Shown here one piece after another: positions 18,646 to 40,722 of a stretch of DNA of 64,000 nucleotides. The notes below the pieces were generated by a model. The model did no database searches, was not told the DNA's origin, and saw nothing but the letters and a program-made list of their open reading frames with translations. Both the position numbers and the translations under genes were made by a program. The stretch lies in the NCBI GenBank assembly GCA_963809895.1, contig CAWELD010000003.1:224001-288000 (forward strand), read 5' to 3'. Source of the DNA: an uncultured Gemmatimonadales bacterium. Lineage in GTDB: Bacteria > Gemmatimonadota > Gemmatimonadetes > Longimicrobiales > Gaopeijiaceae. The first letter of the stretch is position 1; every line of letters starts with the position of its first letter.

Positions 18646-18651
18646 CCGTCG

Positions 18652-19965: not shown

Positions 19966-19975
19966 TCGGCGGGCG

Positions 19976-20626
19976 ATGATCGTGATCCTGCTGGGCCCCC
20001 CGGGGGTCGGGAAGGGGACCCAGGGAGTCCTGCTTTGCGAAGCCCTGGGTCTCACCCACCTGTCCACCGGGGATCTCCTGCGGGCCGCCCGGCGGGAGGG
20101 CACGCCGCTGGGGAAGAAGGCCCAGGGGTACATGGACCGCGGCGAGCTGGTCCCCGACGACGTCATCATCGGGATGGTGCGGGAGGCTCTCGAGGCGCTG
20201 CCGCCCGACGGCGGCGTCGTCTTCGACGGCTTTCCCCGCACGGTGCCACAGGCCGAGGCACTGGACCGGGTCCTGGCCGAGCTCGGACGTTCGGTGCACC
20301 GGGTGGTGGTGCTGCAGGCCGACGACGAGACCCTCGTCAAGCGGCTTTCGGGGCGCAGGAGTTGTCCGGAGTGCGGTGCCGTCTACAACGTGCACTTCAA
20401 TCCACCTGCGGCCGAAGGCATCTGCGACCGGTGCTCCCATGCCCTGGTGCACCGGGCCGACGACGCCCCGGAGACGGTGCGCAACCGGCTCGACGTGTAC
20501 CGCGAGTCGACCGAGCCCCTGATCCGCTTCTACGAGGGGCACGCGGCACCGGTTCGGTACGTGGAGGGTGACCAGGCGGTGGAGGAGGTCCAGTCGGCCA
20601 TGCGTCGGGCGGTGGAAGAGGGATGA
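19976..20626 (+). CDS. adk: adenylate kinase (Zn-lid type)
   Basis: GPPGVGKGTQ, DGFPRT, CPEC..CDRC. Confidence 0.97.
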   Translation: MIVILLGPPGVGKGTQGVLLCEALGLTHLSTGDLLRAARREGTPLGKKAQGYMDRGELVPDDVIIGMVREALEALPPDGGVVFDGFPRTVPQAEALDRVLAELGRSVHRVVVLQADDETLVKRLSGRRSCPECGAVYNVHFNPPAAEGICDRCSHALVHRADDAPETVRNRLDVYRESTEPLIRFYEGHAAPVRYVEGDQAVEEVQSAMRRAVEEG

Positions 20627-21402
20627 TCCATCTGCGCTCCCAGGCGGAGATCGCCGCCATCGCTCGCGGCGGAGCCATCATCGGCCAGCTCTTCCAGGAG
20701 CTGGAGCCTCGCGTGGCTCCGGGGATTTCGACCGAGGCGCTGGACCGGTTCTGCGAGGACTTCATCCGGTCCTTCGAGGGCGCGGAGCCGGCCTTCAAGG
20801 GCCTGTACGGGTTCCCGGGGGCCGTGTGCATCTCCCTCAACGAGGAGATCGTGCACGGGATTCCGAGTCCGGACCGCACCCTGGCCGAGGGCGACAACGT
20901 CTCGGTGGACGTCGGGGTCCGTCGCGACGGTTGGTGCTCGGACTCGGCCTGGACCTTCGGCGTGGGTGAGGTGAACGAGGACACCGCGTCGCTCCTCGAC
21001 GTCACGGAGCGGTCTCTGGCCAACGCCATCGAGGCCGCGGTGCCCGGGAAGCACGTGGGGGACATCGGCGCCGCTGTGGTGGCGACGGTGCAGGGCTCCG
21101 GCCTGGGAATCGTGCGGGACCTGGTGGGGCACGGCGTGGGTCGCGAGGTCCACGAGGAACCCCAGGTCCCCAACGTGGGGCGTGCGGGGTACGGCCCCCT
21201 CCTGCGGGCAGGCATGGTGCTGGCCATCGAGCCCATGCTCAGCCTGGGGACGGACCGGATCCGCACGTTGGAGGACGGATGGACCGTGATCACCGCCGAC
21301 CGCAGCCGGTCGGCGCATTTCGAGCACACGGTGGCCATCACGGAGGACGGCCCGCAGATCCTCACCGCGGCCGGTCGAGAAGCTCCGACCACGGCCTCGT
21401 GA
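20623..21402 (+). CDS. map: type I methionine aminopeptidase
   Basis: GHGVGREVHEEP, AIEPM, SAHFEHT. Confidence 0.97.
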   Translation: MIHLRSQAEIAAIARGGAIIGQLFQELEPRVAPGISTEALDRFCEDFIRSFEGAEPAFKGLYGFPGAVCISLNEEIVHGIPSPDRTLAEGDNVSVDVGVRRDGWCSDSAWTFGVGEVNEDTASLLDVTERSLANAIEAAVPGKHVGDIGAAVVATVQGSGLGIVRDLVGHGVGREVHEEPQVPNVGRAGYGPLLRAGMVLAIEPMLSLGTDRIRTLEDGWTVITADRSRSAHFEHTVAITEDGPQILTAAGREAPTTAS

Positions 21403-21443
21403 GAAGGGGCGGGCCCGCTGGTCGAATCCGTTGTCCTGACGCC

Positions 21444-21472
21444 TTGAAGGGGCGTGGGGCAGTCGTTATAGT
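21444..21472 (+). promoter_or_regulatory. sigma70-type promoter for rpmJ-rpsM-rpsK-rpsD-rpoA-rplQ
   Basis: TTGAAG (21444-21449), 17-nt spacer, TATAGT (21467-21472). Confidence 0.7.
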
Positions 21473-21510
21473 AATAAGCTCTGCCAGAAACGGACGTGGA
21501 GTGCGTTCAC

Positions 21511-21627
21511 ATGAAGGTTCGTAGCAGCGTCAAGCCGATTTGCGAGCATTGCAAGGTGATCCGCCGCCGAGGGGTGGTGCGGATCATCTGCAGCCGCAAT
21601 CCGAAGCACAAGCAGCGGCAGGGATAA
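21511..21627 (+). CDS. rpmJ: 50S ribosomal protein L36 (not in ORF track)
   Basis: Manual translation [38 protein letters not shown]. Confidence 0.98.
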
Positions 21628-21630
21628 CCC

Positions 21631-22011
21631 ATGGCTCGTATTGCAGGCGTCGACCTCCCCAGGGGAAAGCGGATCGAGGTCGCTCTCACCTACATCTACG
21701 GCATCGGCGATTCCCGGGCTCGCGACATCCTGGAGGCCACGGGGATCAACCCCGATCTCCGGACGCACGAGCTGGGAGACGAAGAGGTCAATCGCCTCCG
21801 CCGCCAGATCGAGGGCAACTACAAGGTCGAGGGTGCGCTGCGCACCGAGGTGTCCATGAACATCAAGAGGCTCATGGACATCGGCTGCTACCGTGGCCTC
21901 CGCCATCGGCGAGGTCTGCCGGTCCGGGGTCAGCGGACGCACACCAACGCCCGTACGCACAAGGGGGGCCGCCGGCCCATCGCCGGAAAGAAGAAGGCCC
22001 CCAAGAAGTAG
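21631..22011 (+). CDS. rpsM: 30S ribosomal protein S13
   Basis: [19 protein letters not shown]. Confidence 0.99.
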
Positions 22012-22139
22012 CGTAGCACCGCGCACGCCGGGACGGGTTCCCGGTGGGCGTGTTTCCTGGATGCGGCGTCCCGGCGACCCAGGAGTCGCGGACTCGCCGC
22101 ATCCACGTTTGTTCGCCAGGTCTGACGAGGGAAGGAAAC

Positions 22140-22532
22140 GTGGCCAAGGGTAAGCCAACCCGCACGAAGCGCACCAAGAAGGTGGTGGAAGCGGACGGCG
22201 TCGCACACATCAAGGCGACGTTCAACAACACCATCATCACCATCACGGACAGCACCGGAAACGCCGTGGTCTGGGGCAGCGCCGGCAAGGCCGGCTTCAA
22301 GGGCTCCAAGAAGTCCACGCCGTTCGCTGCGACCGTGGCCGCCGAGCAGGCGGGCCGCGAGGCCGTGAGCATGGGTGTCAAGCGTGTGGCCGTCCGGGTG
22401 CAGGGTCCCGGATCGGGCCGCGAGTCCGCGATTCAGGCTCTGGCGTCCGCCGGGCTGCACATCAAGTCGATCCAGGATGTGACGCCCCTTCCGCACAATG
22501 GGTGCCGGCCCCCGAAGAAGCGCCGCGTCTAA
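22140..22532 (+). CDS. rpsK: 30S ribosomal protein S11
   Basis: GTG start after [27 protein letters not shown]. Confidence 0.98.
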
Positions 22533-22545
22533 CTGAGGTTCCAGG

Positions 22546-23181
22546 ATGGCTCGATATACCGGTCCGGTTTGCAAGCTCTGCCGCCGTGAGGGGCAGAAGC
22601 TCTTCTTGAAGGGGATCAAGTGCTACACGGAGAAGTGCCCGGTGGACCGGCGCACCTATCCGCCCGGTCAGCACGGTCCCGCGCAGGCGCGTCGCCGCAA
22701 GCAGTCCGACTACGCGACGCAGCTGCGGGAGAAGCAGAAGGTGAAGCGGATGTACGGCATGCACGAGAGGCAGTTCCGCTCCCTCTTCGAGCAGGCGAAC
22801 CAGCAGCAGGGCGTGACGGGTGAGAACCTGCTCGTCCTGCTGGAGTCGCGCCTGGACAACGTCATCTTCCGCATGGGCTTCGCGGCCAGCCGGAACCAGG
22901 CCCGCCAGTTGGTGCGCCACCGGCACGTGGAGGTGAACGGCCACCCGGTGGACGTTCCCAGCTATCGGGTGCGGCAGGGAGACGAGATCGCCATCCGTGG
23001 CGCATCCCGGGACATGGCGGTGGTCCAGGGCAGCCTGGAGTCCCGCACCCGCCCCTCCATGGTGGAGTGGCTGACGCTGGACGAGAAGAACCGAGTGGGT
23101 CGTGTGGTCCGGAAGCCCACCCGCCAGGACATCCCCATGGCGGTGCAGGAGCAGCTCATCGTGGAGCTCTACTCCAAGTAA
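22546..23181 (+). CDS. rpsD: 30S ribosomal protein S4 (Cys/Zn type)
   Basis: MARYTGPVCKLCRREG, LESRLDNV, LIVELYSK. Confidence 0.99.
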   Translation: MARYTGPVCKLCRREGQKLFLKGIKCYTEKCPVDRRTYPPGQHGPAQARRRKQSDYATQLREKQKVKRMYGMHERQFRSLFEQANQQQGVTGENLLVLLESRLDNVIFRMGFAASRNQARQLVRHRHVEVNGHPVDVPSYRVRQGDEIAIRGASRDMAVVQGSLESRTRPSMVEWLTLDEKNRVGRVVRKPTRQDIPMAVQEQLIVELYSK

Positions 23182-23265
23182 TCGGACGACGGACCCACGG
23201 GGATGGACGTCCCGGGGGGTCCGCAGCCAACGGAGTTCCCAGTGCCGAGGCACGAGGAGGATATT

Positions 23266-24312
23266 GTGGAGATCGATCTGATCGGATTGGTGCTTCCCGA
23301 GCGCATCGAGGCCGCGGAGACGTCGGAGGACGGGCGCACCGCCCGCTTCGTCGTTGAGCCGCTCGAGCGCGGCTTCGGGCATACGTTGGGCAATTCCGTC
23401 CGGCGAGTCCTCCTGTCGTCGCTGCGGGGGTCCGCCGTATGGGCGTTCCGCATCGACGGCGTGGTGCACGAGCACCAGACCATCCAGGGCGTGGTGGAGG
23501 ACGTCCATCAGGTCATCCAGAACCTCAAGGCTCTGGTGGTCATGCTGGACCCCGATGTCGAGGACGCCGTGCTGGAGATCCGCGCCGAGGAGAGCGGCCC
23601 GGTGACCGCCGGCATGATCCAGGCGCCCTCCGGCGTGGAGGTCCTGGACGACGACCACCACATCCTGACCCTGCAAGAAGACCGCACGCTCAACATCGAG
23701 CTCTACGTCAACAAGGGCCGTGGCTTCGTCCTCGCCGAGCAGCACGAGCTGCCTCGGGGCGCTCCCGTGGATCTGGTGCGCATCGATGCCATCTACAACC
23801 CGGTTCGGCGCGCCAACTTCAACGTGGAGGAGACCCGGGTCGGCCAGCGGACCGACTTCGACCGTCTGACCCTGCACGTGGAGACCGACGGCTCGGTGGA
23901 TCCCGAGGATGCGGTCCGCTACGCCGCCGCCCTGGTGCGGAAGCACCTGGAGTACATGCTCTATTTCGGCGAGGGCGGCATTCCCCAGGCGACGCCTCCG
24001 GGCGCCGTGGCGGTGCCGGAGCGCCTCCAGGACCTCTTCGCCCGGCCCATCGAGGACCTGGCGGAGCTGAGCGTGCGGTCCCGGAACTCGCTCCAGAAGG
24101 AGAACATCCGCACGCTCGGTGATCTCGTGCAGAAGACCGAAGACGAGATGCTCGCCATCGAGAACTTCGGCAAGAAGTCGCTGAAGGAGATCGCCGACTT
24201 CCTGGACGATCACGGGCTGCGGTTCGGGATGCGCCTCGAGGCAGGCGACGACGGTCAGCTCTATTTCGTGGACGAGGCGGAGGAAGCCGAAGAGGCCGCC
24301 GAGGCCGAGTAA
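23266..24312 (+). CDS. rpoA: RNA polymerase alpha subunit
   Basis: EPLERGFGHTLGN, LSVRSRN, ENFGKKSL; GTG after GAGGAGG. Confidence 0.98.
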   Translation: MEIDLIGLVLPERIEAAETSEDGRTARFVVEPLERGFGHTLGNSVRRVLLSSLRGSAVWAFRIDGVVHEHQTIQGVVEDVHQVIQNLKALVVMLDPDVEDAVLEIRAEESGPVTAGMIQAPSGVEVLDDDHHILTLQEDRTLNIELYVNKGRGFVLAEQHELPRGAPVDLVRIDAIYNPVRRANFNVEETRVGQRTDFDRLTLHVETDGSVDPEDAVRYAAALVRKHLEYMLYFGEGGIPQATPPGAVAVPERLQDLFARPIEDLAELSVRSRNSLQKENIRTLGDLVQKTEDEMLAIENFGKKSLKEIADFLDDHGLRFGMRLEAGDDGQLYFVDEAEEAEEAAEAE

Positions 24313-24342
24313 GGCGATCCTCCCAGCGCACATCGGATTACC

Positions 24343-24696
24343 ATGCGTCATCGCAAGAAGGGTAGAAAGCTCTCGCGGACCGCCAGCCACCGGCGGGCCA
24401 CGTTGCGGAACATGGCTCAGAACCTGTTCCGCCACGGGCGAATCGAGACGACCACGGCCAAGGCGAAGGAGCTGCGTCCGTACGCGGAGAGGCTGATCAC
24501 GCTGGCCAAGCGCGGCGACCTCCATGCCCGCCGGTTGGTGGCGGCGCGCATCGGCGATCGCAACGTCGTGGGGGCGCTCTTCGACGAGATCGCACCTCGC
24601 TACACCGAGCGTCCCGGTGGCTACACGCGGATTCTGAAGTTGGGGGCCCGCAAGGGCGACGCGGCGGAGATGTCGCTGATCGAGTTGGTGGATTAA
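24343..24696 (+). CDS. rplQ: 50S ribosomal protein L17
   Basis: [18 protein letters not shown]. Confidence 0.99.
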
Positions 24697-24745
24697 GTTG
24701 TCCCGCGTTCGATCATCGGAACATCCCATCAAAGGAACGGCGGAA

Positions 24746-25285
24746 ATGGCCCAGAGCGGATCGCGGAGGGGAGCTTCGAACCTCGGAATCCCCCTCATGC
24801 TCCTCAGCTTCATACTTCTCGGCGGATTCCTGTACTGGCTGTACATCACTGCGGTGCCGACGGAGCCCGCCGTGACAGAGCAGGCCGACTCCACCGCGGC
24901 GGACATGACCGCCATCGCGGCGGACCCCGGCTCCCTGGCCATCGATGCAAGTCAGTACGAGGGTCAGACCGTACGGCTGCCGGCGCTCGAAGTGGCCGCG
25001 GCGGTGGGCCGGAGGGCGTTCTTCCTGAATCTGACGGACCAGACGCCGTTTCTGGTGCGCATGGACTCCGCGTTGGTGGCGCGGGGTATGACCGTGCCCA
25101 CGGGTCGCGTCCGGGTGGTCGGGGACGTGGTTCCCATGACGGACAGCATCATCACGCAGTGGACGTCGGCGGGTGACATCACCGAGGGGGATCGCCCGGT
25201 GGTGGAGTTCGCCACCCACTTCATTCTGGCACATCAGGTGCAGTCGGCTCCGCCCGCTGGCGACGGATCGTCCGGCGGCAACTGA
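24746..25285 (+). CDS. hypothetical protein with single N-terminal TM anchor
   Basis: ORF fills the rplQ-rpmB gap; hydrophobic [28 protein letters not shown] upstream. Confidence 0.75.
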
Positions 25286-25313
25286 CGCACCGAACGACAG
25301 GACAGACGGAATC

Positions 25314-25526
25314 ATGGCTCGAGTGTGCTACGTGTGTGGCAAGCGCCCCGCTACGGGGAACAACGTGAGTCACGCGAACAACCGGACGAAGCGTCGTTGG
25401 CTTCCGAACCTGCAGACGGCGCGCATCGTCGATGCCGACGGCACCCGCAAGCGTGTGCGCGTATGCACCTCGTGCATCTCTGCCGGGAAGATCCGCAAGG
25501 CTCCCCCCGTGAAGGCCGGGGCCTGA
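25314..25526 (+). CDS. rpmB: 50S ribosomal protein L28
   Basis: [35 protein letters not shown]. Confidence 0.97.
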
Positions 25527-25554
25527 GGCAGGGCGTCCGTATCCATCCGTCCTA

Positions 25555-25592
25555 CGACGCCCCCGGCCGCCGCGCGCGCGCCGGGGGCGTCG
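25555..25592 (+). terminator. GC-rich hairpin after rpmB
   Basis: CGACGCCCCCGGC / GCCGGGGGCGTCG perfect 13-bp inverted repeat; no strong U tract. Confidence 0.55.
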
Positions 25593-25697
25593 CGCGTTCG
25601 GGGTCCTCACTCAGGGCTGGCGTCGCGGGCGTGTTCCTTGCAGCGTCGGTTGGGGCTGGGCCGTCGACGTCGATTCCCCCCGTATCGTGGGCATCCG

Positions 25698-26504
25698 GTG
25701 AGCGCACAGCGTACACGTGATCTCGATCGAATCCGCCGGGCCCTCGCGGCCGGGGCGGAGGCCGTGCGGCCCTTCACGCCGGGCCAGGTGGCGTTTCGGA
25801 CCAAGGAAGCGCGCAACGACCCGGTCACCGAGGCGGACCTGGCCGTGGACCGGGTGCTGCGGGAGCTCCTGCCCGGGGACGACGAAGGCTGGCTCTCCGA
25901 GGAGACCCGGGACGATCCCGTGCGCCTGGAGCGTCGGCGTGTCTGGGTCGTGGATCCCCTCGACGGAACCCGCGAGTTCGTGGAAGGGATCCCGGAGTGG
26001 TGTATCTCGGTCGGGCTTCTGGAGGACGGGCAGGCCGTGGCGGGCGGAATCTTGAATCCCGCCACCGGGGAGCTCGTTCTGGGATCGGTGGAGACCGGCA
26101 TCGTGGCCGGGGGTGGCGACGCGGCGGACACACGGGTCGCCGGCCTCTCCGGAGCTCGTGTGCTGGCGAGCCGCAGTGAGGTGAAGCGCGGAGAGTGGGC
26201 CGGCTTCCAGGAATCCGATTTCGAGGTGGTTCCCTGCGGGTCGGTCGCCTACAAGCTCGGGCTGGTCGCCGCGGGCCGGGCCGACGCCACGTGGACCCTT
26301 GTTCCCAAGCACGAATGGGACGTGGTGGCCGGTGTCGCGCTCATCCGCGCCGCGGGCCTGGTCGCCATGCACGCCGACGGGTCGCCTCCGCGTTTCAATC
26401 GGCCTTCGCCCCTGCTGTCGAACCTGCTGGCGGGACCCGCGACACTCCTGGAGGACCTGCTGGCGCGCCTGCAGGGAGATCACCCCGCCGCCGCTGCCGA
26501 TTGA
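25698..26504 (+). CDS. cysQ: 3'(2'),5'-bisphosphate nucleotidase CysQ-like (inositol monophosphatase family)
   Basis: DPVTEAD, WLSEE, DPLDGTREF, EWDVVAG; close to cysD/cysNC. Confidence 0.8.
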   Translation: MSAQRTRDLDRIRRALAAGAEAVRPFTPGQVAFRTKEARNDPVTEADLAVDRVLRELLPGDDEGWLSEETRDDPVRLERRRVWVVDPLDGTREFVEGIPEWCISVGLLEDGQAVAGGILNPATGELVLGSVETGIVAGGGDAADTRVAGLSGARVLASRSEVKRGEWAGFQESDFEVVPCGSVAYKLGLVAAGRADATWTLVPKHEWDVVAGVALIRAAGLVAMHADGSPPRFNRPSPLLSNLLAGPATLLEDLLARLQGDHPAAAAD

Positions 26505-26564
26505 AAGCCGTTGCCGGCCCGTTCATATTCACACACCCATCCCTCCCCGCAATCCCCCACCCCC

Positions 26565-27884
26565 ATGAACAAGACGGACACCGTGGAACGCCGTTTCCGC
26601 GACGACGAGGTGACCTTCGGCGTCGTCGGCATGGGCTACGTAGGCCTGCCTCTGGCGGTGGAGGCCGCGGGCCAGGGGATCAAGGTCCTGGGGCTGGACA
26701 TCAATCAGTCGGTGGTGGAGGCCATCAACGACGGCCGCAGCCACATCCAGGACGTGCCGGAGTCGCGCGTGGCCGAGCTGGTTCGGTCGGGGCGCCTGGA
26801 GGCGACCCACGAGATGGAGCGTCTCGCCGAGTGCGACGTCGTGTCCATCTGCGTCCCCACCCCGCTCTCCAAGACCCGTGATCCGGACATCTCCTTCATC
26901 ATGGCCTCCACGGAGGCCGTGGCCAGACACCTGGTGGACGGCCAGCTCATCGTGCTGGAGTCCACCACCTATCCCGGGACCACGCGGGAGATCCTCTTGC
27001 CGGCTCTGGAGGCCACGGGGCGGACGGTGGGAGAGGACTTCTTCCTCTGCTTCAGCCCGGAGCGGGTCGATCCCGGCAACCCGGTCTGGAGCACGCGAAA
27101 CACACCCAAGGTGATCGGGGGCATCACCGAGCGTTGCACCCGGGTGGGCTGCGCCTTCTACGAGCGCTTCATCGAGACCATGGTTTCGGTGTCCTCGTCG
27201 GAGGCCGCCGAGCTCACCAAGATCCTGGAGAACACCTTTCGGGCGGTGAACATCGGCCTGGTCAACGAGACGGCGCTGATCGCGGACCGTCTGGGCGTCG
27301 ACGTCTGGGAGGTCATCGAGGCCGCGGCCACCAAACCCTTCGGCTTCATGAAGTTCCTGCCGGGACCGGGGCTCGGAGGCCACTGCATTCCCGTGGATCC
27401 CCACTACCTGTCCTGGAAGATGCGCACGCTGAATTACCGCACGCGCTTCATCGATCTGGCCTCGGAGGTGAACGCCGAGATGCCTCTGTTCGTGGTGGGC
27501 AAGGTCCAGGACGCGCTCAACCGCCACCGCAAGGCCGTCAACGGATCCCAGGTGCTGGTTCTGGGCGTCGCCTACAAGAAGGACATCGACGACGTGCGAG
27601 AGTCCCCGGCGCTGGACGTGATCCGCCTGCTCGAGGCCGATGGCGCTCAGGTGAGCTACCATGATCCGCACGTTCCCTCGGTGGTGGAGGATGGCCACCG
27701 CTGGGACTCGGTGGCGCTGACGCCCGACGCTCTGGCCGCTGCCGACGTGGTCGTCATCGTCACCGACCACTCGGACTTCGACTTCGACGTCATCTTCGAA
27801 CAAAGCCGTGCCCTGGTGGACGCCCGTCACGCCGTGACCCGGGAGACCGGGCGTCGGGGCGGCCGCTGGATCGTGAAGTGGTGA
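26565..27884 (+). CDS. UDP-N-acetylhexosamine 6-dehydrogenase (WbpA/WecC family)
   Basis: GMGYVGLPLA, ICVPTP, SPERVDPGN, GGHCIPVDP. Confidence 0.9.
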   Translation: MNKTDTVERRFRDDEVTFGVVGMGYVGLPLAVEAAGQGIKVLGLDINQSVVEAINDGRSHIQDVPESRVAELVRSGRLEATHEMERLAECDVVSICVPTPLSKTRDPDISFIMASTEAVARHLVDGQLIVLESTTYPGTTREILLPALEATGRTVGEDFFLCFSPERVDPGNPVWSTRNTPKVIGGITERCTRVGCAFYERFIETMVSVSSSEAAELTKILENTFRAVNIGLVNETALIADRLGVDVWEVIEAAATKPFGFMKFLPGPGLGGHCIPVDPHYLSWKMRTLNYRTRFIDLASEVNAEMPLFVVGKVQDALNRHRKAVNGSQVLVLGVAYKKDIDDVRESPALDVIRLLEADGAQVSYHDPHVPSVVEDGHRWDSVALTPDALAAADVVVIVTDHSDFDFDVIFEQSRALVDARHAVTRETGRRGGRWIVKW

Positions 27885-27918
27885 AGCCTGGCGCCTGCCA
27901 CCCCGGTACCCTGCCTCG

Positions 27919-28824
27919 ATGACTCGCTACCACAAGACCCATCTGGACCAACTGGAGTCGGAGGCGATCTTCGTGCTCCGGGAGGTGTCGGCCCAGTTCG
28001 AGCGTCCGGTGATGCTCTTCTCCGGCGGCAAGGACTCCATCGTCATGGTCCATCTCGCCCGCAAGGCGTTCTGGCCGGGGCCCCTGCCGTTTCCGCTCAT
28101 GCACATCGACACGGGGCACAATTTTCCCGAGACGCTGGAATTCCGGGACCGGCTCGTGGAGCAGGTTGGGGCAGAGCTGGTGGTGCGCTCGGTGCAGGAC
28201 TCCATCGACGAGGGCCGGGTCAAGGAGGAGCACGGGCCCCACGCGAGCCGCAACGCTCTCCAGACGGTGACGTTGCTGGACGGACTGGAGGCCCTCAGGG
28301 TGGATGCCGCCATCGGCGGTGGCCGGCGCGACGAGGAGAAGGCTCGAGCCAAGGAGCGCTTCTTCTCGCATCGGGATGCCTTCGGACAGTGGGATCCCCG
28401 CAATCAGCGCCCCGAGCTCTGGAACCTGTTCAACGGCCGCAAGAACCCCGGCGAGCACTTCCGGGTCTTCCCTCTCTCCAACTGGACCGAGATGGACGTC
28501 TGGCAGTACGTGGCCCGGGAGGAGATCGAGCTGCCGTCTCTCTACTTCGCCCACGAGCGTGAGGTGGTCGAGCGGGAAGGCGTGCTTCTGGCCCGAACGG
28601 AGTTCCTGTGGCCGGTGGACGGGGAGCAGCCCGAGCTGCTCACGATACGCTTCCGCACCATCGGTGACGCGACCTGCACGGGCGCAGTGCGCTCCGACGC
28701 TTCCACGGTGGAGGACATCATCCACGAAGTGGCGTCGGCGCGGGTCACGGAGCGGGGTGGACGGTCCGACGACAAGCGGTCGGAAGCCGCCATGGAAGAT
28801 CGCAAGCGGCAGGGGTATTTCTGA
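27919..28824 (+). CDS. cysD: sulfate adenylyltransferase subunit 2
   Basis: FSGGKDS, GGRRDEEKARAKER, QRPELW. Confidence 0.97.
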   Translation: MTRYHKTHLDQLESEAIFVLREVSAQFERPVMLFSGGKDSIVMVHLARKAFWPGPLPFPLMHIDTGHNFPETLEFRDRLVEQVGAELVVRSVQDSIDEGRVKEEHGPHASRNALQTVTLLDGLEALRVDAAIGGGRRDEEKARAKERFFSHRDAFGQWDPRNQRPELWNLFNGRKNPGEHFRVFPLSNWTEMDVWQYVAREEIELPSLYFAHEREVVEREGVLLARTEFLWPVDGEQPELLTIRFRTIGDATCTGAVRSDASTVEDIIHEVASARVTERGGRSDDKRSEAAMEDRKRQGYF

Positions 28825-30722
28825 TGTCCGACGCCAGGAACCCCTACCGCGAGATGGACCTGCTGCGGTTCACCACGGCCGGGAGCGTGGACGACGGCAA
28901 GAGCACCCTGATCGGGCGACTCCTCTACGACACCAAGTCCATCTTCGAGGACCAGTTGGAGGCCGTGGAGCGGGCGAGCCGCACCCACGGCGAGGAAGCG
29001 GTCAACCTGGCGCTCCTCCTGGACGGGCTGCGCGCGGAGCGCGAGCAGAAGATCACCATCGACGTGGCCTACCGCTACTTCGCGACGCCCAAGCGGAAGT
29101 TCATCATCGCCGACACGCCCGGGCACGTGCAGTACACCCGCAACATGGTCACCGGCGCGTCCACGGCGGAGCTGGCGGTGGTGCTCATCGATGCCCGCAA
29201 GGGTGTGCTGACGCAGTCGCGCCGCCACGGCTTCATCGCGTCACTGCTGGGGATTCCGCACCTGGTGGTGGCGGTCAACAAGATGGACCTGGTCGACTGG
29301 CGGGAGGACGTCTTCGAGGAGATCGTCGGCAGCTACCGGGAGTTCTGCGAGAAGCTCGACGTCACGGACATCACCTTCATCCCCCTGTCGGCGCTGGAGG
29401 GGGACAACGTGGTGGAGCCCAGCGAGCGCATGCCCTGGTACCAGGGGAGCACCCTTCTCCATCACCTGGAGAACGTGAGTATCGGCGCGGGACGCAATCT
29501 CCTGGACTTCCGGTTCCCCGTGCAGTGCGTGATCCGACCCAACCAGGACTTCAGGGGATTCGCGGGGCGTGTGGCGTCGGGCACGCTGCAACCCGGTGAA
29601 GACGTGGTCGTGCTGCCGTCGGGTCGGGCGACCCGGATCCGCACCATCGAGACCTCCGACGGACCGGTGCAGGAGGCCGTGGCCGGGGACTCCGTGGTCC
29701 TGACCACCGAGGACGAGGTGGACATCTCCCGCGGGGACATGGTGGTACGGACCATGAACCTGCCCCGGGTGGGCACCCGCTTCGAGGCCATCGTCTGCTG
29801 GATGAACGAGGAGCCGCTCCAGCCGCGTCGCGAGTACGTGCTCATGCACACGACCCGCCAGGTCTCGGCGCGCGTGGACCGGCTGGTCTACCGGATCAAC
29901 GTGGACACCCTCCACCGGGAGGAGGCCGAACAGCTCGGACTCAACGACATCGGCCGGGTACAGATCGAGACGGCGAAGCCCGTCTTCTTCGATCCGTATC
30001 GCAACAACCGGCAGACCGGCGGCTTCATCCTGGTGGACCGCCACACCAACGTGACCGTGGGCGCGGGCATGATCCGGGGCGAGGTGCGCACGCCTCCCCG
30101 GACGCCCGGCGAACGGCCATCGTCGCCCGACGTGGTGTGGGAGGGCTGGAACGTGCCCAGGTCCGAGCGCGAGGCCCGCAATCGTCACCGGCCCGCGGTG
30201 GTCTGGTTCACGGGGCTGTCGGGCGCGGGGAAGTCCACCGTGGCCCGGGCCGTGGAGCGTCGTCTCTTCGATCGGGGCCTGCACACCATGTATCTGGACG
30301 GCGACCAGGTGCGGCACGGGTTGTGCGGCGATCTGGGGTTCTCGGCGGAGGACCGCACCGAGAACATTCGCAGGGTGGGTGAGGTGGCTCGGCTCTTCTA
30401 CGAGCACGGCAACGTGGTGCTGTGCGCCTTCGTGTCGCCCTACGAGGCCGATCGACGCCGCGTGCGGGAGCTCTTTCCGGAGGGCGCCTTCTTCGAGGTC
30501 CACGTGCACGTCGGGCTGGACGAGGCGCGCCGACGGGATCCCAAGGGCCTCTACGCCCGAGCCGAGGCCGGTGAGCTTCAGGGCCTCACCGGCGTGGACG
30601 CGCCGTACGAGGCGCCGGAGCGGCCGGCGCTGGTGCTGGACAGCGAGCGCCTGCAGCCCGGAGAGGCCGCCGAGCGCGTGCTCGAACTGCTGGACGAAGC
30701 CGGGATCACTCTTTCGGACTGA
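28824..30722 (+). CDS. cysNC: bifunctional sulfate adenylyltransferase subunit 1 / APS kinase
   Basis: AGSVDDGKST GTPase domain plus C-terminal WFTGLSGAGKST...LDGD APS kinase domain. Confidence 0.95.
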   Translation: MSDARNPYREMDLLRFTTAGSVDDGKSTLIGRLLYDTKSIFEDQLEAVERASRTHGEEAVNLALLLDGLRAEREQKITIDVAYRYFATPKRKFIIADTPGHVQYTRNMVTGASTAELAVVLIDARKGVLTQSRRHGFIASLLGIPHLVVAVNKMDLVDWREDVFEEIVGSYREFCEKLDVTDITFIPLSALEGDNVVEPSERMPWYQGSTLLHHLENVSIGAGRNLLDFRFPVQCVIRPNQDFRGFAGRVASGTLQPGEDVVVLPSGRATRIRTIETSDGPVQEAVAGDSVVLTTEDEVDISRGDMVVRTMNLPRVGTRFEAIVCWMNEEPLQPRREYVLMHTTRQVSARVDRLVYRINVDTLHREEAEQLGLNDIGRVQIETAKPVFFDPYRNNRQTGGFILVDRHTNVTVGAGMIRGEVRTPPRTPGERPSSPDVVWEGWNVPRSEREARNRHRPAVVWFTGLSGAGKSTVARAVERRLFDRGLHTMYLDGDQVRHGLCGDLGFSAEDRTENIRRVGEVARLFYEHGNVVLCAFVSPYEADRRRVRELFPEGAFFEVHVHVGLDEARRRDPKGLYARAEAGELQGLTGVDAPYEAPERPALVLDSERLQPGEAAERVLELLDEAGITLSD

Positions 30723-30738
30723 CGGCGGGAGACGAACC

Positions 30739-31107
30739 ATGCACAGCACTCCACGACGGGTGGAGAAACCCTGGGGATACGAGCTCATCTGGGCCGACAC
30801 GGATCTCTACGTGGGCAAGATCCTGCACATCAATGCAGGCGAGGCCCTCTCGCTCCAGTACCACGAGCAGAAGGACGAGACCATCTGCGTGCTCTCCGGA
30901 GAGATGCTCTTCGTGGCCGGCCCGTCGGCCGACGAGCTGAGCGAGCACCGCATGAAGGCCGAGGACGCGTTCCGCGTCACCCCGGGCACGGTCCACCGCA
31001 TGGTGGCCGTGACGGACTGCGACGTCCTGGAGGCGTCGACTCCCCATCTGCAGGATGTCGTGCGGCTGGACGACCGCTACGGTCGCAGCAGCGACGACCC
31101 CTATTGA
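30739..31107 (+). CDS. cupin domain protein (type II mannose-6-phosphate isomerase C-terminal-like)
   Basis: VEKPWGYE, LSLQYHEQKDET, HRM, DVVRLDDRYGR. Confidence 0.85.
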   Translation: MHSTPRRVEKPWGYELIWADTDLYVGKILHINAGEALSLQYHEQKDETICVLSGEMLFVAGPSADELSEHRMKAEDAFRVTPGTVHRMVAVTDCDVLEASTPHLQDVVRLDDRYGRSSDDPY

Positions 31108-31154
31108 GGGCGGGGAAGGGAACCCGGAGGGCCGAGCGCCCGTACAGGCAACGC

Positions 31155-32129
31155 ATGAGAGAGCCGTGGGGAATCGGGGGGCGCCTTCGGGTGCTGCTGT
31201 GGGTCGGCGCCGCGGGCGCCGTCCTGGCGGGCTGCGTGGACGCCAACGCCGACGCCAACGCCGTTCGGCGGGGAGACGTGGCGTTCGCCGCCGACTCCCT
31301 CGAGGAAGCCATCGCCGAATATCGCCTCGCGGTGCTGAATCGTGGAGACGATCCGTCGACGCTGGCCCGCGCGGCCCACACCTACGCCGAGCTCGGTCGG
31401 GTGGACGAGGCCGCCGACTTCTACAGCCGGGCCATGACCATCGACCCCGCCTGGGCCGACGAGGCGGCCGCCGATCTGATGCACCTGGCCCGGGAGGCCT
31501 CGCGCCGCCAGGACCGCTTCCGCATGGCCACCGCGGTTCAGAAGGCCCTGGAGTTCCGGCCCGGCATCGGCCTGGGAGAGCTGGCCCTGCCTCTGGCGCG
31601 GCACTACTTCCGCAACGGAGAGTTCGGACGTGCGCTGCCGCTCTACACCCGGGCGCTGGCGGCGGCCGACTCCGTGCCGCGCATCCTCTTCGAGATCGCC
31701 CAGGCCCACGAGGAGATCGGAGACTGCCAGCGGGCGCTGGTCTATTTCGAGCAGTACCGCGAGGTGGCCTCCAGGTCGCAGCGCGACGAGACCAACTGGC
31801 ACATCGGCTCGTGCGCGTTGCGGGTGGCCCGTGAGCTGCGCAGCCAGGGCCAGGCCTCGTCGTCCGAGCTGGAAGAGGCCCTGTCCCTGGTGAACCGGAC
31901 CATCGAGGTCGGCGAGCCCCGGAACGTCCAGGGGCAGGCCTGGTTCGAGCGGGGTGAGATCCAGGCCGCCATGGGCGAGTGCACCGCCGCCATGGAGTCC
32001 TTCGCCCAGGTCCGCCTGGTGGAGGCGACCGGGGGGAGCGCTCTGGTGAAGCAGGCCCAGGACCGCTACGACCGCATCCGCTTCGGACGGGGGCTGGACC
32101 GCTTCCGGGAGAGCGGCGCCTGCTACTGA
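31155..32129 (+). CDS. TPR-repeat lipoprotein
   Basis: Lipobox VLAGC followed by helical TPR-like repeats. Confidence 0.75.
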   Translation: MREPWGIGGRLRVLLWVGAAGAVLAGCVDANADANAVRRGDVAFAADSLEEAIAEYRLAVLNRGDDPSTLARAAHTYAELGRVDEAADFYSRAMTIDPAWADEAAADLMHLAREASRRQDRFRMATAVQKALEFRPGIGLGELALPLARHYFRNGEFGRALPLYTRALAAADSVPRILFEIAQAHEEIGDCQRALVYFEQYREVASRSQRDETNWHIGSCALRVARELRSQGQASSSELEEALSLVNRTIEVGEPRNVQGQAWFERGEIQAAMGECTAAMESFAQVRLVEATGGSALVKQAQDRYDRIRFGRGLDRFRESGACY

Positions 32130-32245
32130 CCGGCTCGCCAGCACCCTCAACGAAAGCGACGGCCGGTCGGGGCTGGACCCGTTGGAGTCGAGTGGCGATG
32201 CTTCATGGCTCGCAATGTGTGCACTCCAGCCCCAGGTGATTCGAC

Positions 32246-33364
32246 GTGGCCGTCCCCTTGCTGGACCTGACCGCCCAGTACCAGGCCCTGCGTGAGGAGC
32301 TCGACGCCGCGGTGTCGCGGGTCGTGCGTTCGCAGGGGTTCGTGCTGGGACCCGAGGTCGAGGCCTTCGAGGAGGCCATGGCCCAGTATCTGGGCGTGGC
32401 GCATGCGGTCGGGGTCGCCAGCGGCACCGATGCCCTCCTCCTCCCGCTCATGGCCCTGGAGCCGGAGCCGGGCGACGAGGTCGTGGTGCCCGCATTCACC
32501 TTCTTCGCCACGGCGGGTGCGGTGTGGAACGCCGGCTTTCGTCCGGTCTTCTGCGATGTCGATCCGGTGACCTTCAACGTGTCGGCGGCGACGCTGTCCG
32601 CCGCGTGGACGCCCCGGACCCGCGCGGTGATCCCGGTCGATCTCTTCGGACAGATGGCGCCCATGGAGGACATCCTGCCCCTGGCGCGGGACCGCGGAGC
32701 GGTGGTCCTCGAGGACGCGGCCCAGGCGGTGGGCGCGCGCCGCGAGATCGAGGGGGCCTCCGTCATGGCGGGTGCGGTGGCGCCGGTGACGGCGTTCTCG
32801 TTCTTTCCCACCAAGAACCTCGGGGGATTCGGTGACGGGGGCATGGTCACCGCCCTCGACGGCGATCTGGCCGAGCGGGTCCGCAAGCTGCGGGTGCACG
32901 GCGGACGCCAGATGTACCACCACGAGCTGGTGGGGACCAACTCCCGTCTGGACGCCCTGCAGGCTGCGGTCTTGCGGGCCAAGCTCCCGCATCTCGACCA
33001 ATGGGCCGCCGCCCGGCGTGAGAACGCCTGCCGGTACGAGGAGCTGCTGGCCGACGTGCCGGAGGTGCTCACGCCCACGGTGGCCGAGGGCAACTTCCAC
33101 GTGTACAACCAGTACACCGTGAGGGCGAGACGCCGGGACGAGCTCCGGGCGTTCCTCAACGAGCGTGGCATCGGCTGCGGCGTGTACTACCCCGTGCCGT
33201 TGCACCTGCAGGCCTGCTTCGGAGAGCTGGGGTACCACGAAGGTGACCTGCCGGCATCCGAGGAGCTGTGCAGGGAGGTGCTGAGCTTGCCGGTCTTTCC
33301 GGAGCTCGGCGAGGAGCGAGTCGCCGAGGTCGCCGGGGCGGTACGCGCCTTCTACGGAGCCTGA
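32246..33364 (+). CDS. DegT/DnrJ/EryC1/StrS sugar aminotransferase
   Basis: SGTDAL, EDAAQA, SFFPTKNLGGFGDGG, NSRLDALQA. Confidence 0.93.
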   Translation: MAVPLLDLTAQYQALREELDAAVSRVVRSQGFVLGPEVEAFEEAMAQYLGVAHAVGVASGTDALLLPLMALEPEPGDEVVVPAFTFFATAGAVWNAGFRPVFCDVDPVTFNVSAATLSAAWTPRTRAVIPVDLFGQMAPMEDILPLARDRGAVVLEDAAQAVGARREIEGASVMAGAVAPVTAFSFFPTKNLGGFGDGGMVTALDGDLAERVRKLRVHGGRQMYHHELVGTNSRLDALQAAVLRAKLPHLDQWAAARRENACRYEELLADVPEVLTPTVAEGNFHVYNQYTVRARRRDELRAFLNERGIGCGVYYPVPLHLQACFGELGYHEGDLPASEELCREVLSLPVFPELGEERVAEVAGAVRAFYGA

Positions 33365-33432
33365 CGCTCGACGGAGGCCGCTGCCCCCCGCCCGCGAGCC
33401 CCGCCGCCAGTGGTCGCGGGCCCTGAAACCCC

Positions 33433-34242
33433 ATGGACAAACCCGGGTACTCCCAACGGATGTTCTTTCGCACTGTTCGACTCGTCGCCCTCGCAGGCGT
33501 TGGCATCGCTCTGAGCGCATGCGCGTCGGCCCCCAAGTATCAGGGGCTGACGGCGTCGCAGCTCTATGCACGGGCCCAACAGGAGTTCGAGCACGAGGAC
33601 TACGGCGATGCGGCCGAGACCCTCGAGTTCCTCCTGCGGGCGAGCCCGAGCTTCGAGCAGGGCGCGGAGGCGCAGCTCCTCCTGGCCCGGGCGTACTTCG
33701 AGGACAAGCAGTTCATCACGGCCCAGGCCGAGTACACCCGCTTCCTCGATCGCTATCCGGCGCATCCGTCGGCTCCCGACGCAGCACTGGGCGTGTGCCG
33801 CTCCAACGAAGCCCTGTCGCCCATCAGCCAGCGTGACCAGACGTTCACGCAGCAGGCGCTCCAGGTGTGCGGCAACATGGTGACCGACTATGCCGGCACC
33901 CCGCAGGCCGAAGAGGCCCAGCGCATCGTGACAGAAATGCAGGACAAGCTGGCCAAGAAGGTCTACGACAACGGCCACTACTATCTGCGGCGTGACTTCA
34001 ACGACTCGGCCATCATCTATTTCCAGTCCGTTGTGGATCGATATCCGGGTACGGAGTGGGCACCCCGTGCGCTGGTGGGCATCATCGACGCCTACACCGC
34101 CATCGGGTACGACGACGAGGTGGAGGCGGCGCGGCAACGGCTCCTGAACGAGTATCCGGATTCGCCGGAGGCCCAGCGGATCTCGGCCAGCGCGCAGGGC
34201 GACGGGAGTGACGGCGCGGGCGGGACCTCGGGGTCCAGGTAG
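33433..34242 (+). CDS. bamD: outer membrane assembly lipoprotein BamD (start may be 33460)
   Basis: Lipobox LSAC, TPRs, RDQT motif, YYLRR..SAIIYF. Confidence 0.85.
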   Translation: MDKPGYSQRMFFRTVRLVALAGVGIALSACASAPKYQGLTASQLYARAQQEFEHEDYGDAAETLEFLLRASPSFEQGAEAQLLLARAYFEDKQFITAQAEYTRFLDRYPAHPSAPDAALGVCRSNEALSPISQRDQTFTQQALQVCGNMVTDYAGTPQAEEAQRIVTEMQDKLAKKVYDNGHYYLRRDFNDSAIIYFQSVVDRYPGTEWAPRALVGIIDAYTAIGYDDEVEAARQRLLNEYPDSPEAQRISASAQGDGSDGAGGTSGSR

Positions 34243-34828
34243 TGGACATCGGGCTCTTCGGAGGGTCGTTCGATCCACCTCACGCCGGACATCTGATCGT
34301 CGCGCAGGACGCCATGGAACGGCTGGGACTGGATCGGATCCGGTTCGTGCCGGCCAGGATCTCGCCGTTCAAGGTGGGCGAGGACGAGCGCGGTCCCGCG
34401 GCGCCGGCCGAGCTCCGCCTGGAGATGGTGCGAGCGGCGCTGGCGGACCATCCCGCCATGGAGGTGGATCGCGCGGAGCTGGACCGGGACGGCCCGTCCT
34501 ACACGGTGGACACCCTGCGGGCCTTCCGGGCCCGCGAGCCCGACATCCGCTGGACGCTGCTGATCGGGTCGGATCAGTGGGCCTCGTTCGGCCGCTGGCG
34601 TGAGCCGGAGGTCATCGCGAGCCTGGCGAGCATTGCGGTCATGACCCGATCCGGCGTGGAGCTGAACGAGGCCGGAGGACCGGGTCTGCCGCACCGATCC
34701 GTGCCCGTGACCCGGGTGGACATCTCCTCGACGGAGCTCCGTCGGCGGGTCTGCGACGGCCGCTCCATCCGATTTTTCGTGCCCGAAGCCGTGCGGGCCC
34801 TCATCGAAGCGAACGGATTGTATTCGAC

Positions 34829-34835
<7 letters not shown>
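34242..34835 (+). CDS. nadD: nicotinate-nucleotide adenylyltransferase
   Basis: GGSFDPPHAGH, SYTVDT, ISSTELR. Confidence 0.95.
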
Positions 34836-38164
<3,329 letters not shown>

Positions 38165-38208
38165 TAGCGCGGAAACAAGCGGCGTGCCCGGGGGTGACCC
38201 CCTCGGAT

Positions 38209-38230
38209 TGTGCCGAGATTGTGTCGTAAC
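38209..38230 (+). repeat. putative integrase arm-type site, left
   Basis: TGTGCCGAGATTGTGTCGTAAC, 19/22 identical to 40556-40577. Confidence 0.6.
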
Positions 38231-38297: not shown

Positions 38298-38846
38298 TTA
38301 CCCGATCTTCGTGACCTTCGCCGGACCACGGCGTCCGGTATGCAGCTTCGCCAGCTTCTCGACGCCCTCGGCCAGCGCGACCTCGTCGGCGATGGCGTAG
38401 CGACGATACACGGCCTCGGTCTTGTGGCCCGTCAGCTTCATGGCCACCGACCTGGGTACGCCGGCGCGCTCCAGGTTCCGGACCGCCGTGCGTCGTAGGT
38501 CATGGAACCACGCGCCGTCGAGCCCGACGCGACTGCACGCGCCGTCCCAAGCTCCACGCATGGACCGGATGGGCTCGCCGTCGCGGTGGAAGACCCAGGG
38601 CACGAGCTGGCCGGTCGCGCGCTCCACGGCCCGCGTCCTGGCCCGCTGGTCCTCGAGGAGCTCCTGGAGGGGAGGGAGGGCCCGGAAGGGGAACGTCCGA
38701 CCCTCGGAGTTCTTCGACCGGGTGGCCTCGAGGTGCACGGTGCCGGCGTCGAAATCGACGTGAGCCCATCGGAGACCGGTGACCTCCCGCTTCCGCCAGC
38801 CTGTCAGCGCCGCGAAACGCACGACGGGCGCCAGGTCGGGCCCGAT
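38298..38846 (-). pseudogene. tyrosine recombinase/integrase, catalytic domain only (5' half missing)
   Basis: TGWR(R), SKN(K), HDLRR(HxxR), TGH(H), VYRRY(Y); frame is closed by TAG at 38847-38849, leaving no N-terminal binding domains. Confidence 0.88.
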
Positions 38847-39056: not shown

Positions 39057-39086
39057 TTGACGACGCCGGTAGCATGATGCTACGAT
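39057..39086 (+). promoter_or_regulatory. TA operon promoter with 15-bp palindromic operator
   Basis: TTGACG (39057-39062), 18 nt, TGc-TACGAT extended -10 (39078-39086); GTAGCAT-G-ATGCTAC palindrome at 39069-39083. Confidence 0.7.
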
Positions 39087-39090
39087 TGAC

Positions 39091-39408
39091 ATGACTCCGC
39101 GGAACGCTCCGACCCATTCGCTGGCCTTGGTCAAAGCAGCCGTTCAAGACGGTCGTTGGCTCGCGTCAGGCAAGGTGCTAAGGACCGCATCCGCCGTGTA
39201 CTGTGATCGGCGCGACATCGAGGAGTGCATTGCTAGCCTTACCGAAGAAGACTTCCGCAAGTCAATGCCCTCCGAAGCGCGGGAGGGGCGGTGGCAGGAT
39301 GTATATAAGGTCCACTACTACAGCATGCCCATCTACCTGAAGTTCGACTACTCGTCTAGAACTGACCGGGTAATCCTCCTTTCCTTCAAGCTAGATGAGG
39401 ATCCGTGA
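39091..39408 (+). CDS. mqsR: MqsR-family mRNA interferase toxin
   Basis: DFRKSM...WQDVY...YLKF...LLSFK resembles MqsR signature; 105 aa; overlaps antitoxin start (GTGA). Confidence 0.85.
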   Translation: MTPRNAPTHSLALVKAAVQDGRWLASGKVLRTASAVYCDRRDIEECIASLTEEDFRKSMPSEAREGRWQDVYKVHYYSMPIYLKFDYSSRTDRVILLSFKLDEDP

Positions 39409-40025
39409 CTGACTGCCCATATTGCGAGCATCCCTTAGAGGAACGAACTGAAGTGCGCGAGCTGCGTTTCGGTCGGCGGTCGGCTTCTGTCCCACATGAG
39501 TTCCTTTGGTGCGAGGAGTGTCAGGAGGAATTCCAGACGCCAGAGCAAATGGACAGTGCTCAGCGGCTTGCGTCCAACGCCATCCGTGAACAGGAGGGAC
39601 TCCTGAGACCGGAGGAGATCAAGTCCATTAGGGACCGCTTGAGTATCTCCCAAGCGGATTTTGAGCGGCTGCTAGGCGTGGGCGAGAAGACCGTGGTGCG
39701 TTGGGAGCGCGGGACGGTGTTTCAGAACGCCGCCACGGACAACCTCATGAGGGTTGTCAGTGCCTTCCCTCAGGTGGCTCACTTTCTGGCTGAACGGCAT
39801 GGGGTCACCATCGAGGCACCTGATAGCGTACAGATGTTCGAGTTGTCGTTCGGTCATCCCTCACCTGCAGACTGGATCCAAGGGGCTTTCGGAGGTGAAG
39901 ACATGGCCGAGGCGTTCGGGAACCTCAGCTTCATTCGCCTCTCCGGGCGTACGTTAGCGGATGCGGATGCACCCCGCGGAGCACCCGATTGGGTTGTCTC
40001 AGGGAGTGTCAGGCGTGCCGTCTAA
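39405..40025 (+). CDS. mqsA: MqsA-family antitoxin (Zn finger + HTH) with about 75-aa C-terminal extension
   Basis: CPYC...CEEC, EIKSIRDRLSISQADFERLLGVGEKTVVRWERG; tail after about residue 131. Confidence 0.87.
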   Translation: MTDCPYCEHPLEERTEVRELRFGRRSASVPHEFLWCEECQEEFQTPEQMDSAQRLASNAIREQEGLLRPEEIKSIRDRLSISQADFERLLGVGEKTVVRWERGTVFQNAATDNLMRVVSAFPQVAHFLAERHGVTIEAPDSVQMFELSFGHPSPADWIQGAFGGEDMAEAFGNLSFIRLSGRTLADADAPRGAPDWVVSGSVRRAV

Positions 40026-40452
40026 GCCCGCAGTGCCCGACTTCCAGGTAAGCAACATCGGCCTTCACCGGTTGGATTTCAGCCGCCTGGGACCTCAACA
40101 GGTGACAGGCCCGCTTGATGTGCAGATCCAGTTGGGCACTGGCCGCCTTGCAGAGCGGGAACTCGGAGTAGAGGTGGGTGTGCTGGTGGAATACGAAGAC
40201 GCCTTCAGGCTTGAGATATCCTACCGCTGCGTCTTTAGCCGTGAGTCGCCTTTCGACGAGGACGAGGATCCGGAGGAGTATTGGAGCAGCGTAGCCAGTG
40301 CTGCCTCCACCCTCGTGCTATTCCCTTACGTGCGCGCAGAATTCACCCATGTCTTGAACGCTGCGGGCATACACGGTCAACAGCTTCCACTCGTAAACCC
40401 AATGAGCATGTTCCCCGCCGCCCAAATCACTATCGCTGAACCGCCCGAATGA
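40015..40452 (+). CDS. SecB-like chaperone (TAC chaperone)
   Basis: GTG at 40015 after AGGGAG, overlaps mqsA stop; 145 aa; LFPYVRAEF...G...LPLVN resembles the SecB C-terminal motif. Confidence 0.78.
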   Translation: MPSKPAVPDFQVSNIGLHRLDFSRLGPQQVTGPLDVQIQLGTGRLAERELGVEVGVLVEYEDAFRLEISYRCVFSRESPFDEDEDPEEYWSSVASAASTLVLFPYVRAEFTHVLNAAGIHGQQLPLVNPMSMFPAAQITIAEPPE

Positions 40453-40555
40453 GATCGCGCTGAAGGTCTTCAGCAGGCCCCCCGGGCCGCCGCGTCGCCA
40501 GAGCCCTGATCCTCCCGGGCCATTACTCCAGACTCCCGACGGAAGGCCCCTCCAC

Positions 40556-40577
40556 TGTGCCACGATTGTGCCGTAAC
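40556..40577 (+). repeat. putative integrase arm-type site, right
   Basis: TGTGCCACGATTGTGCCGTAAC, 19/22 identical to 38209-38230. Confidence 0.6.
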
Positions 40578-40691: not shown

Positions 40692-40722
40692 GTACAAGAA
40701 GTGCCACGGGCGTAACGCCTGA
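40692..40722 (+). repeat. att direct repeat, right copy (displaced secA 3' end)
   Basis: Exact 31-bp copy of 38134-38164 encoding YKKCHGRNA*. Confidence 0.95.

Follow-up and report, generated by a model that had tools for sequence, protein, structure and literature searches.

Anti-phage toxin-antitoxin-chaperone (TAC) systems have been dissected mainly in Escherichia coli, which also has a housekeeping SecB. TACs of the MqsRA type have already been characterized, anti-phage ones included (PMC5105189, PMC9519451): MqsRAC of E. coli C496_10 is described as blocking phage T2, a protection that extra chaperone removes (PMC9519451; PMC10783111). In HigBAC, HigC is reported to sense a phage tail protein (10.1101/2024.02.24.581848). 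The mycobacterial TAC is described as stress-responsive, being induced by heat shock, hypoxia, and starvation; the same source reports that its chaperone, Rv1957, can stand in for E. coli SecB and that TACs lie mostly in horizontally acquired regions (PMC3581621).

We analyzed a 64,000-nucleotide stretch of the genome of an uncultured Gemmatimonadales bacterium (the window). On sequence evidence, positions 39091 to 40452 are an intact MqsR-MqsA-SecB-like TAC operon. The TAC mechanism itself is already known, and the operon is a new example from a little-studied phylum. The initial annotation knew of no characterized example in this lineage, and our full-text search, which covered few subscription papers, likewise found no paper on a Gemmatimonadota TAC or SecB-like chaperone. 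Gemmatimonadota are also unnamed in the searchable supplement of PMC3581621, which may leave out its tables.

Compared by description, MqsRAC of E. coli C496_10 and the TAC of Vibrio cholerae RC385 have the same three families in the same order as the window operon, with an antitoxin extension and a SecB-like third gene. Unlike those two, the window system comes from another phylum and from a genome in which our search found no housekeeping SecB, and it is carried by an element at secA; its antitoxin tail is 71 amino acids (aa) long versus about 41 aa in V. cholerae RC385 (PMC5105189). With HigBAC of E. coli NT1F31 and with CmdTAC/PD-T4-9 it shares a long aromatic-rich tail and a dedicated SecB-like chaperone (10.1101/2024.02.24.581848; PMC9519451) but not the toxin and antitoxin families. 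The M. tuberculosis HigB1-HigA1-Rv1957 system is similar in its chaperone structure (5mtw, TM about 0.7 to our model) and in an antitoxin ending in an aliphatic dipeptide (Val-Ala there, Ala-Val in the window; 10.1101/2024.02.24.581848), yet it is built on HigBA rather than MqsRA, and the two chaperones are only 14% identical.

Genes, products, and predicted promoter of the operon

The three plus-strand genes have unbroken frames and overlap as initially annotated: an MqsR-family RNase toxin (39091 to 39408; 105 aa), an MqsA-family antitoxin (39405 to 40025; 206 aa) with a zinc finger and Xre HTH followed by a C-terminal extension, and a SecB-like chaperone (40015 to 40452; 145 aa) with an LFPYVR...LPLVN motif. 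The GTG start of the antitoxin overlaps the toxin TGA by 4 nt, and the antitoxin and SecB-like genes overlap by 11 nt. Toxin, antitoxin, and SecB-like chaperone thus follow one another in the order of MqsRA-type TACs. The A/T-richer codons claimed for the operon were borne out, with GC3 at 0.66 to 0.69 versus 0.84 to 0.93 in five flanking host genes (secA, radC, and three that we take from their translations to be relA, nadD, and bamD); a nearby integrase fragment has a GC3 of 0.87.

The toxin scores 67 bits against Pfam MqsR_toxin (cut-off, 26.2). Its residues K57, Q69, Y82, and K100 align to K56, Q68, Y81, and K96, described as the toxicity residues of E. coli MqsR (PMC2791442); all four are retained, and among 68 aligned toxins they are conserved in 64, 67, 65, and 62, respectively. 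The antitoxin passes the cut-offs of both Pfam MqsA_antitoxin (38 bits; cut-off, 30) and TIGR03830 (91.9 bits; cut-off, 61.8), and with its zinc-binding CxxC pairs and Xre HTH it belongs with the TIGR03830 (MqsA) TAC antitoxin community defined in the supplement of PMC3581621.

The antitoxin core spans residues 1 to about 135, and the C-terminal extension comprises 71 aa. The roughly 75 extra residues counted initially correspond to the difference between 206 aa and the 131 aa of E. coli MqsA. The extension is rich in aromatic residues (seven F/W), and its last two residues are Ala-Val. Because both features match expectation (10.1101/2024.02.24.581848; PMC5105189), we predict that it is a chaperone-addiction element (ChAD). 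Complex prediction with four chaperone copies and antitoxin residues 136 to 206 gave scores of 0.07 and 0.02, in runs without folded controls.

The SecB-like protein alone scores 21 bits against Pfam SecB, below the cut-off of 26, while 59 of the 62 members of its alignment (for which 61 of the 66 relatives found were aligned) match that family. Its profile matches 1ozb, 5mtw, 1qyn, and 1fx3, which include Rv1957, at E values of 1.6e-8 to 4.3e-8, and its AlphaFold2 model (pLDDT, 94.4) matches the same four structures in Foldseek (probability, 1.00; TM about 0.7). The initial annotation had made its reading depend on a SecB fold in this third gene; according to the model, that fold is present. 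The chaperone also has a weak match to PADLOC PD-T4-9_C (E value, 5e-4).

Upstream of the toxin, a sigma-70 promoter is predicted on the plus strand (39057 to 39086). Position 39057, initially given as the start of the operon, is the predicted -35 box, and no gene begins there. The predicted -10 ends at 39086, 4 nt before the toxin ATG, and the toxin transcript is possibly leaderless. By itself the promoter search is weak (one site against a shuffle mean of 0.5); the TTG box and the spacing of the promoter recur in relatives. Overlapping the predicted promoter is a palindromic operator, GTAGCA-N3-TGCTAC (39069 to 39083). Allowing up to two mismatches, it was found 5' of the toxin in 55/72 related loci, these being the loci with enough upstream DNA, versus 0/72 same-length controls. 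We predict that the operator is the MqsA binding site, and MqsA would repress its own operon there. The E. coli MqsA site is given as AACCT-N3-AGGTT (PMC4894380); the window palindrome has the same N3-spaced geometry and different half-sites (GTAGCA/TGCTAC versus AACCT/AGGTT).

In the labels used from here on, L### marks a locus and G### a genome, with G000 being the window's own genome. A second perfect copy of the operator occurs at G000:C10:802064, at the start of an unrelated secreted-type ORF in a region that, from its translations, we take to be exosortase-like. This copy does not support a wider MqsA regulon, as the ORF is unrelated, and it is probably there by chance.

Antitoxin tails and SecB-like genes among relatives

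To place the operon among its relatives, we gathered 100 distinct antitoxins: 13 from genomes, the best 80 of 236 from metagenomes, 30 from an order-wide set, and others through a SecB search, with overlaps among these sources. From these, 21 were dropped as cut off or as having <450 nt downstream without a chaperone match, and three more as the window's own antitoxin and two picked through SecB, which left 76. A SecB-like gene lies 3' of the antitoxin in 18/21 loci with tails of at least 36 aa versus 0/55 with shorter tails, in a count where kin loci are non-independent. The 36-aa threshold was read from a gap after the data had been seen, and thresholds of 30 to 45 gave a like picture. It is important to note that loci with a chaperone match were retained even when short and that two of the chaperones (L043 and L051) were part of the second-round profile. 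Aromatic residues make up 7.2% of the tails in chaperone loci versus 1.2% of short tails.

We also mapped this association on a quick tree of the antitoxins. The best tree has nine changes, of which well-supported branches force only two, and an independent-pairs test found only three pairs on well-supported branches (median P, 0.5) and none in the opposite direction. In one natural pair of loci, L112 and L117, 463 nt of antitoxin core are 94.6% identical, and the two sequences diverge at the core/tail junction. L117 goes on to a tail of 44 aa followed by a SecB-like gene; L112 ends two residues past the core and rejoins the L117 sequence beyond the chaperone.

These observations bear on whether the locus is simply a two-gene MqsRA whose tail is inert and whose SecB-like neighbor is a passenger. 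Such a reading could draw on the third ORF scoring under the Pfam SecB cut-off, on the three long-tailed antitoxins that have no chaperone gene (L121, L129, and L168), and on the window tail, for which an alignment of relatives revealed no conserved sequence. However, ChADs of different TACs are described as having no common sequence similarity (PMC5105189), the genes overlap, the third gene is found in none of the 55 short-tailed loci, and L112 and L117 differ by tail and chaperone together. We consider an inert tail very improbable. The co-occurrence of tail and chaperone fits chaperone addiction, and the window antitoxin very probably depends on its chaperone. Together with sequence, predicted fold, and gene order, the co-occurrence bears out the TAC assignment made initially.

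Across the phylum, SecB-like genes are rare and keep similar company. SecB matches were found in 23/401 Gemmatimonadota genomes (24 genes), and 18 of the 24 genes lie directly behind an MqsA-type (four, including the window), Xre-type HTH (13), or HicB (one) protein; of the remainder, five lie behind proteins without a Pfam family and one is solitary. The solitary gene (L055; G136:C53; 163 bits) is the only canonical-looking SecB in the 401 genomes and may stem from transfer or a binning error. In the host genome (5.3 Mb, 95% complete), the window gene is the only SecB match, and no housekeeping secB was found.

The proteins upstream of the SecB-like genes in L064, L068, L070, L072, and L074 are about 280 to 310 aa long (stop to stop) and lack a Pfam family, and four of the five end in Ala-Ala or a similar aliphatic pair; from their sequences, these loci are candidate TAC systems with new antitoxin types. 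Long-tailed Xre-HTH proteins stand directly 5' of SecB-like genes in L057, L059, L061, L067, L071, L073, L075, L077, and others, with tails often ending in Ala-Ala or similar. Elsewhere in the host genome (G000:C10, about 620700 to 621300) there is a separate RelE/HigB-like and HTH pair, near which no SecB-like gene was found.

The distribution of the window module itself is patchy. Close antitoxin matches carry the labels Longimicrobiales or Gemmatimonadetes, and the antitoxin is absent from 8/8 same-genus genomes. Phages and plasmids contain only distant antitoxin matches (27 to 37% identity); the chaperone has no match in plasmids, and the whole module was not seen in viral contigs, apart from one weak partial match.

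The element at the secA 3' end

Tyrosine-integrase islands, phage-inducible chromosomal islands (PICIs), and remnants mobilizable in cis or in trans are recognized classes of integrated elements. The operon lies in a short insertion behind host secA (34829 to 38164, plus strand), which is intact, with Pfam SecA domains and a SEC-C zinc motif at residues 1091 to 1109. The left attachment repeat (38134 to 38164, plus strand) is the 31-bp end of secA including its stop codon, and the right repeat (40692 to 40722, plus strand) is a displaced copy of that end just upstream of radC; the two are 100% identical and 2,558 bp apart. Putative arm-type integrase sites, each in tandem, occupy the left (38207 to 38225) and right (40554 to 40572) arms, both on the plus strand. 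This arm-type pattern has only two matches in the 5.3-Mb genome, both inside the island, and a similar repeat is found at the same place in the elements of G670, G686, G691, and G191. A 5'-truncated tyrosine integrase on the minus strand (38298 to 38822; Pfam Phage_integrase, 60.8 bits) consists of the catalytic half and is 80% identical to residues 178 to 346 of the 372-aa G670 integrase, whose N-terminal half has no match upstream of the fragment. Since this fragment also lies inside the island, the operon, initially described as the sole cargo, is the sole cargo left intact, and the island has other content besides. The initial annotation did not mention the secA attachment site, the remnant of the integrase, or the operator.

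The secA-radC gap measures a few hundred bases in relatives such as G001, G002, and G008, and the loci of relatives within L001 to L041 revealed no further copy of the att core. With flanking target repeats and an empty site in relatives, the window island is a site-specific integrated element; with its integrase reduced to the catalytic portion, it is not an autonomous element or PICI. Longer secA-radC stretches of 29 to 37 kb in G003, G012, G015, and G030 were considered as islands and rejected, as each has one att core; the G003 stretch, the only one of the four annotated, begins with relA and other core-like genes.

Matches to the integrase were found in 29/401 genomes of the class. Six of 30 integrase loci are behind the SEC-C end of secA (the window, G670, G721, G686, G691, and G191; 72 to 81% identity), and a tRNA gene is nearby in 18/30. 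The window integrase has the SEC-C-coding end of secA as its target, whereas most of its more distant relatives use a tRNA; the window contains no tRNA. The integrase tree does not resolve the six secA-site integrases into one clade (two changes, no starred branch). Our literature search, in which few subscription papers were covered, did not find secA described as an integration site. Two related integrases (L196 in G709 and L199 in G718) share a similar flank that is neither tRNA nor secA, possibly a third target site.

One of the secA-site relatives is complete. The satellite-like element of G686 at the secA 3' end (L220:3108-19278; G686:C15, about 18607 to 34777) spans 16,144 bp and is bounded by 27-bp repeats of the G686 secA end. 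It encodes a full integrase, a terminase small subunit, a PIN protein, and a primase-like AAA_25 protein; its defense genes are a type IIG restriction-modification gene (PADLOC, 1,299 bits) and a match to DitA (Aditi). It shows the features of an autonomous element or PICI in part. The secA-end loci of G670, G691, G191, and G721 (L219, L222, L223, and L224) are all cut by contig ends; in three of the four, the arm-type repeat recurs roughly 70 bp away from the core, and G721 has a 355-aa ORF without a Pfam match between secA and the integrase. We found neither a TAC nor a SecB-like gene in the available stretches of the five other secA-site elements, four of which end at contig ends.

The window island resembles tyrosine-integrase islands at the 3' ends of conserved genes in its target-end repeat, arm-type sites, and convergent integrase, and PICIs in that its G686 relative has an integrase, a primase-like gene, a small terminase, and defense genes; unlike complete islands and PICIs, it measures only 2.6 kb. 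Because the complete G686 relative carries such genes, the best reading of the window island is a satellite-like defense island that has shrunk to a remnant.

A true TAC kept as an addiction module, in which losing either the cassette or the chaperone would free the toxin, would explain why the TAC is the only piece of a decayed element left whole. Whereas the rest of the element has been lost or cut short, the toxin, the operator, and both att arms remain complete, and the placement of TACs mostly in horizontally acquired regions (PMC3581621) agrees with such retention. Addiction, however, needs no chaperone, and 55/76 related loci have a short tail and no chaperone. Moreover, half an integrase does not allow self-excision, which leaves little for addiction to stabilize. 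Retention by addiction alone is therefore an unlikely account.

The position behind secA could itself be functional, with the chaperone docking on the zinc tail of host SecA and the toxin reporting on export. The cassette is directly behind secA on the same strand, SecA keeps the SEC-C motif where SecB binds (PMC4257090), and Rv1957 replaces E. coli SecB (PMC3581621). SecB is described as binding the SecA zinc tail through D20, E24, L75, and E77 (PMC4257090), but in the profile alignment these positions become R19, S23, R65, and E67 in the window chaperone: three of the four are altered, and L75R is a known SecB change defective in SecA binding (PMC4257090). With this altered surface and its place in a toxin-antitoxin operon, the gene does not look like a housekeeping export secB. 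The cassette also has its own predicted promoter, and the lack of a SecB-like gene in the stretches examined of other secA-site elements indicates that the site is set by the integrase. Adjacency to secA was most likely set by the integrase and not by the cargo, and a link to export is very improbable.

Neighborhoods and proposed role

We screened the surroundings of 17 TAC loci and found transposases in three. The TAC of G028, from the same family as the host, lies on an island with an integrase at tRNA-Arg(CCT) (L034:2105-11001); that island also has two weak matches, one to HEPN and one PtuB/HNH-like. In L099 (2213 to 6031), an MqsRA-type TAC precedes a TIR-pAgo pair, made up of a TIR-domain protein and a short prokaryotic Argonaute, and in L113 (845 to 8174) the TAC comes after a type III methyltransferase and before an unassigned ORF of 1,047 aa. 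PADLOC gave matches in three loci among 27 chosen TAC-side proteins, one of them only a generic ATPase, and none at 1e-10 among 24 chosen proteins from short-tailed loci. This comparison is only suggestive because its ORF lists were trimmed by hand and its Pfam thresholds differed (1e-6 and 1e-8). Most TAC relatives examined have no recognizable defense neighbor. Short-tailed MqsRA pairs adjoin the glycine dehydrogenase gene gcvP in four Longimicrobium-like loci (L044, L050, L141, and L154), in three of them directly downstream.

Some of these surroundings would suit a proteostasis or stress sensor, in which misfolded host proteins occupy the chaperone during heat or starvation and MqsR slows growth. 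The TACs of L115, L139, and L164 lie among housekeeping or signaling genes, and heat shock, hypoxia, and starvation induce the mycobacterial system (PMC3581621). Yet the characterized MqsRAC is anti-phage (PMC9519451), and the patchiness of the window module (0/8 same-genus genomes) and its carriage on a mobile element fit defense cargo better. Genomic context thus tilts the purpose, without deciding it, toward defense over stress, two options that the initial annotation had left side by side, and we regard a stress sensor as rather improbable.

We favor an anti-phage role because the characterized MqsRAC is anti-phage, the module is patchy, and a relative of its carrier has defense genes. By analogy, we put the probability that the module is an MqsRAC-type anti-phage tripwire at roughly 60%. 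In such a tripwire, the three genes would be cotranscribed, with MqsA repressing at the palindrome. The 71-aa tail would drive MqsA into aggregation or degradation unless a tetramer of the SecB-like protein holds it, and no housekeeping SecB would substitute, none being found in the genome. A newly synthesized phage protein or an arrest of host synthesis would then draw the chaperone away; with MqsA lost, MqsR would be free to cut mRNA and so stall the infected cell. The carrier would likely have been a phage-satellite-like defense island that lost nearly everything save its att arms and the TAC cargo.

A broader scenario is more tentative, and we think it possible rather than likely. The 2.6-kb unit may be a minimal defense cassette with both att arms, mobilized in trans by secA-targeting satellites of Gemmatimonadota that would form an as yet undescribed family, and bringing a phage sensor to a phylum without housekeeping SecB. 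Tail and chaperone may then be a plug-in, repeatedly gained and lost by MqsRA pairs and other antitoxins, that makes them phage sensors. With L112/L117 as a natural pair, conversion between toxin-antitoxin and TAC systems can be tested directly. Together with some 20 related tail-chaperone pairs, the window module offers a varied set of candidate phage sensors; in their phylum, SecB-like genes are scarce and mostly linked to genes of antitoxin type.
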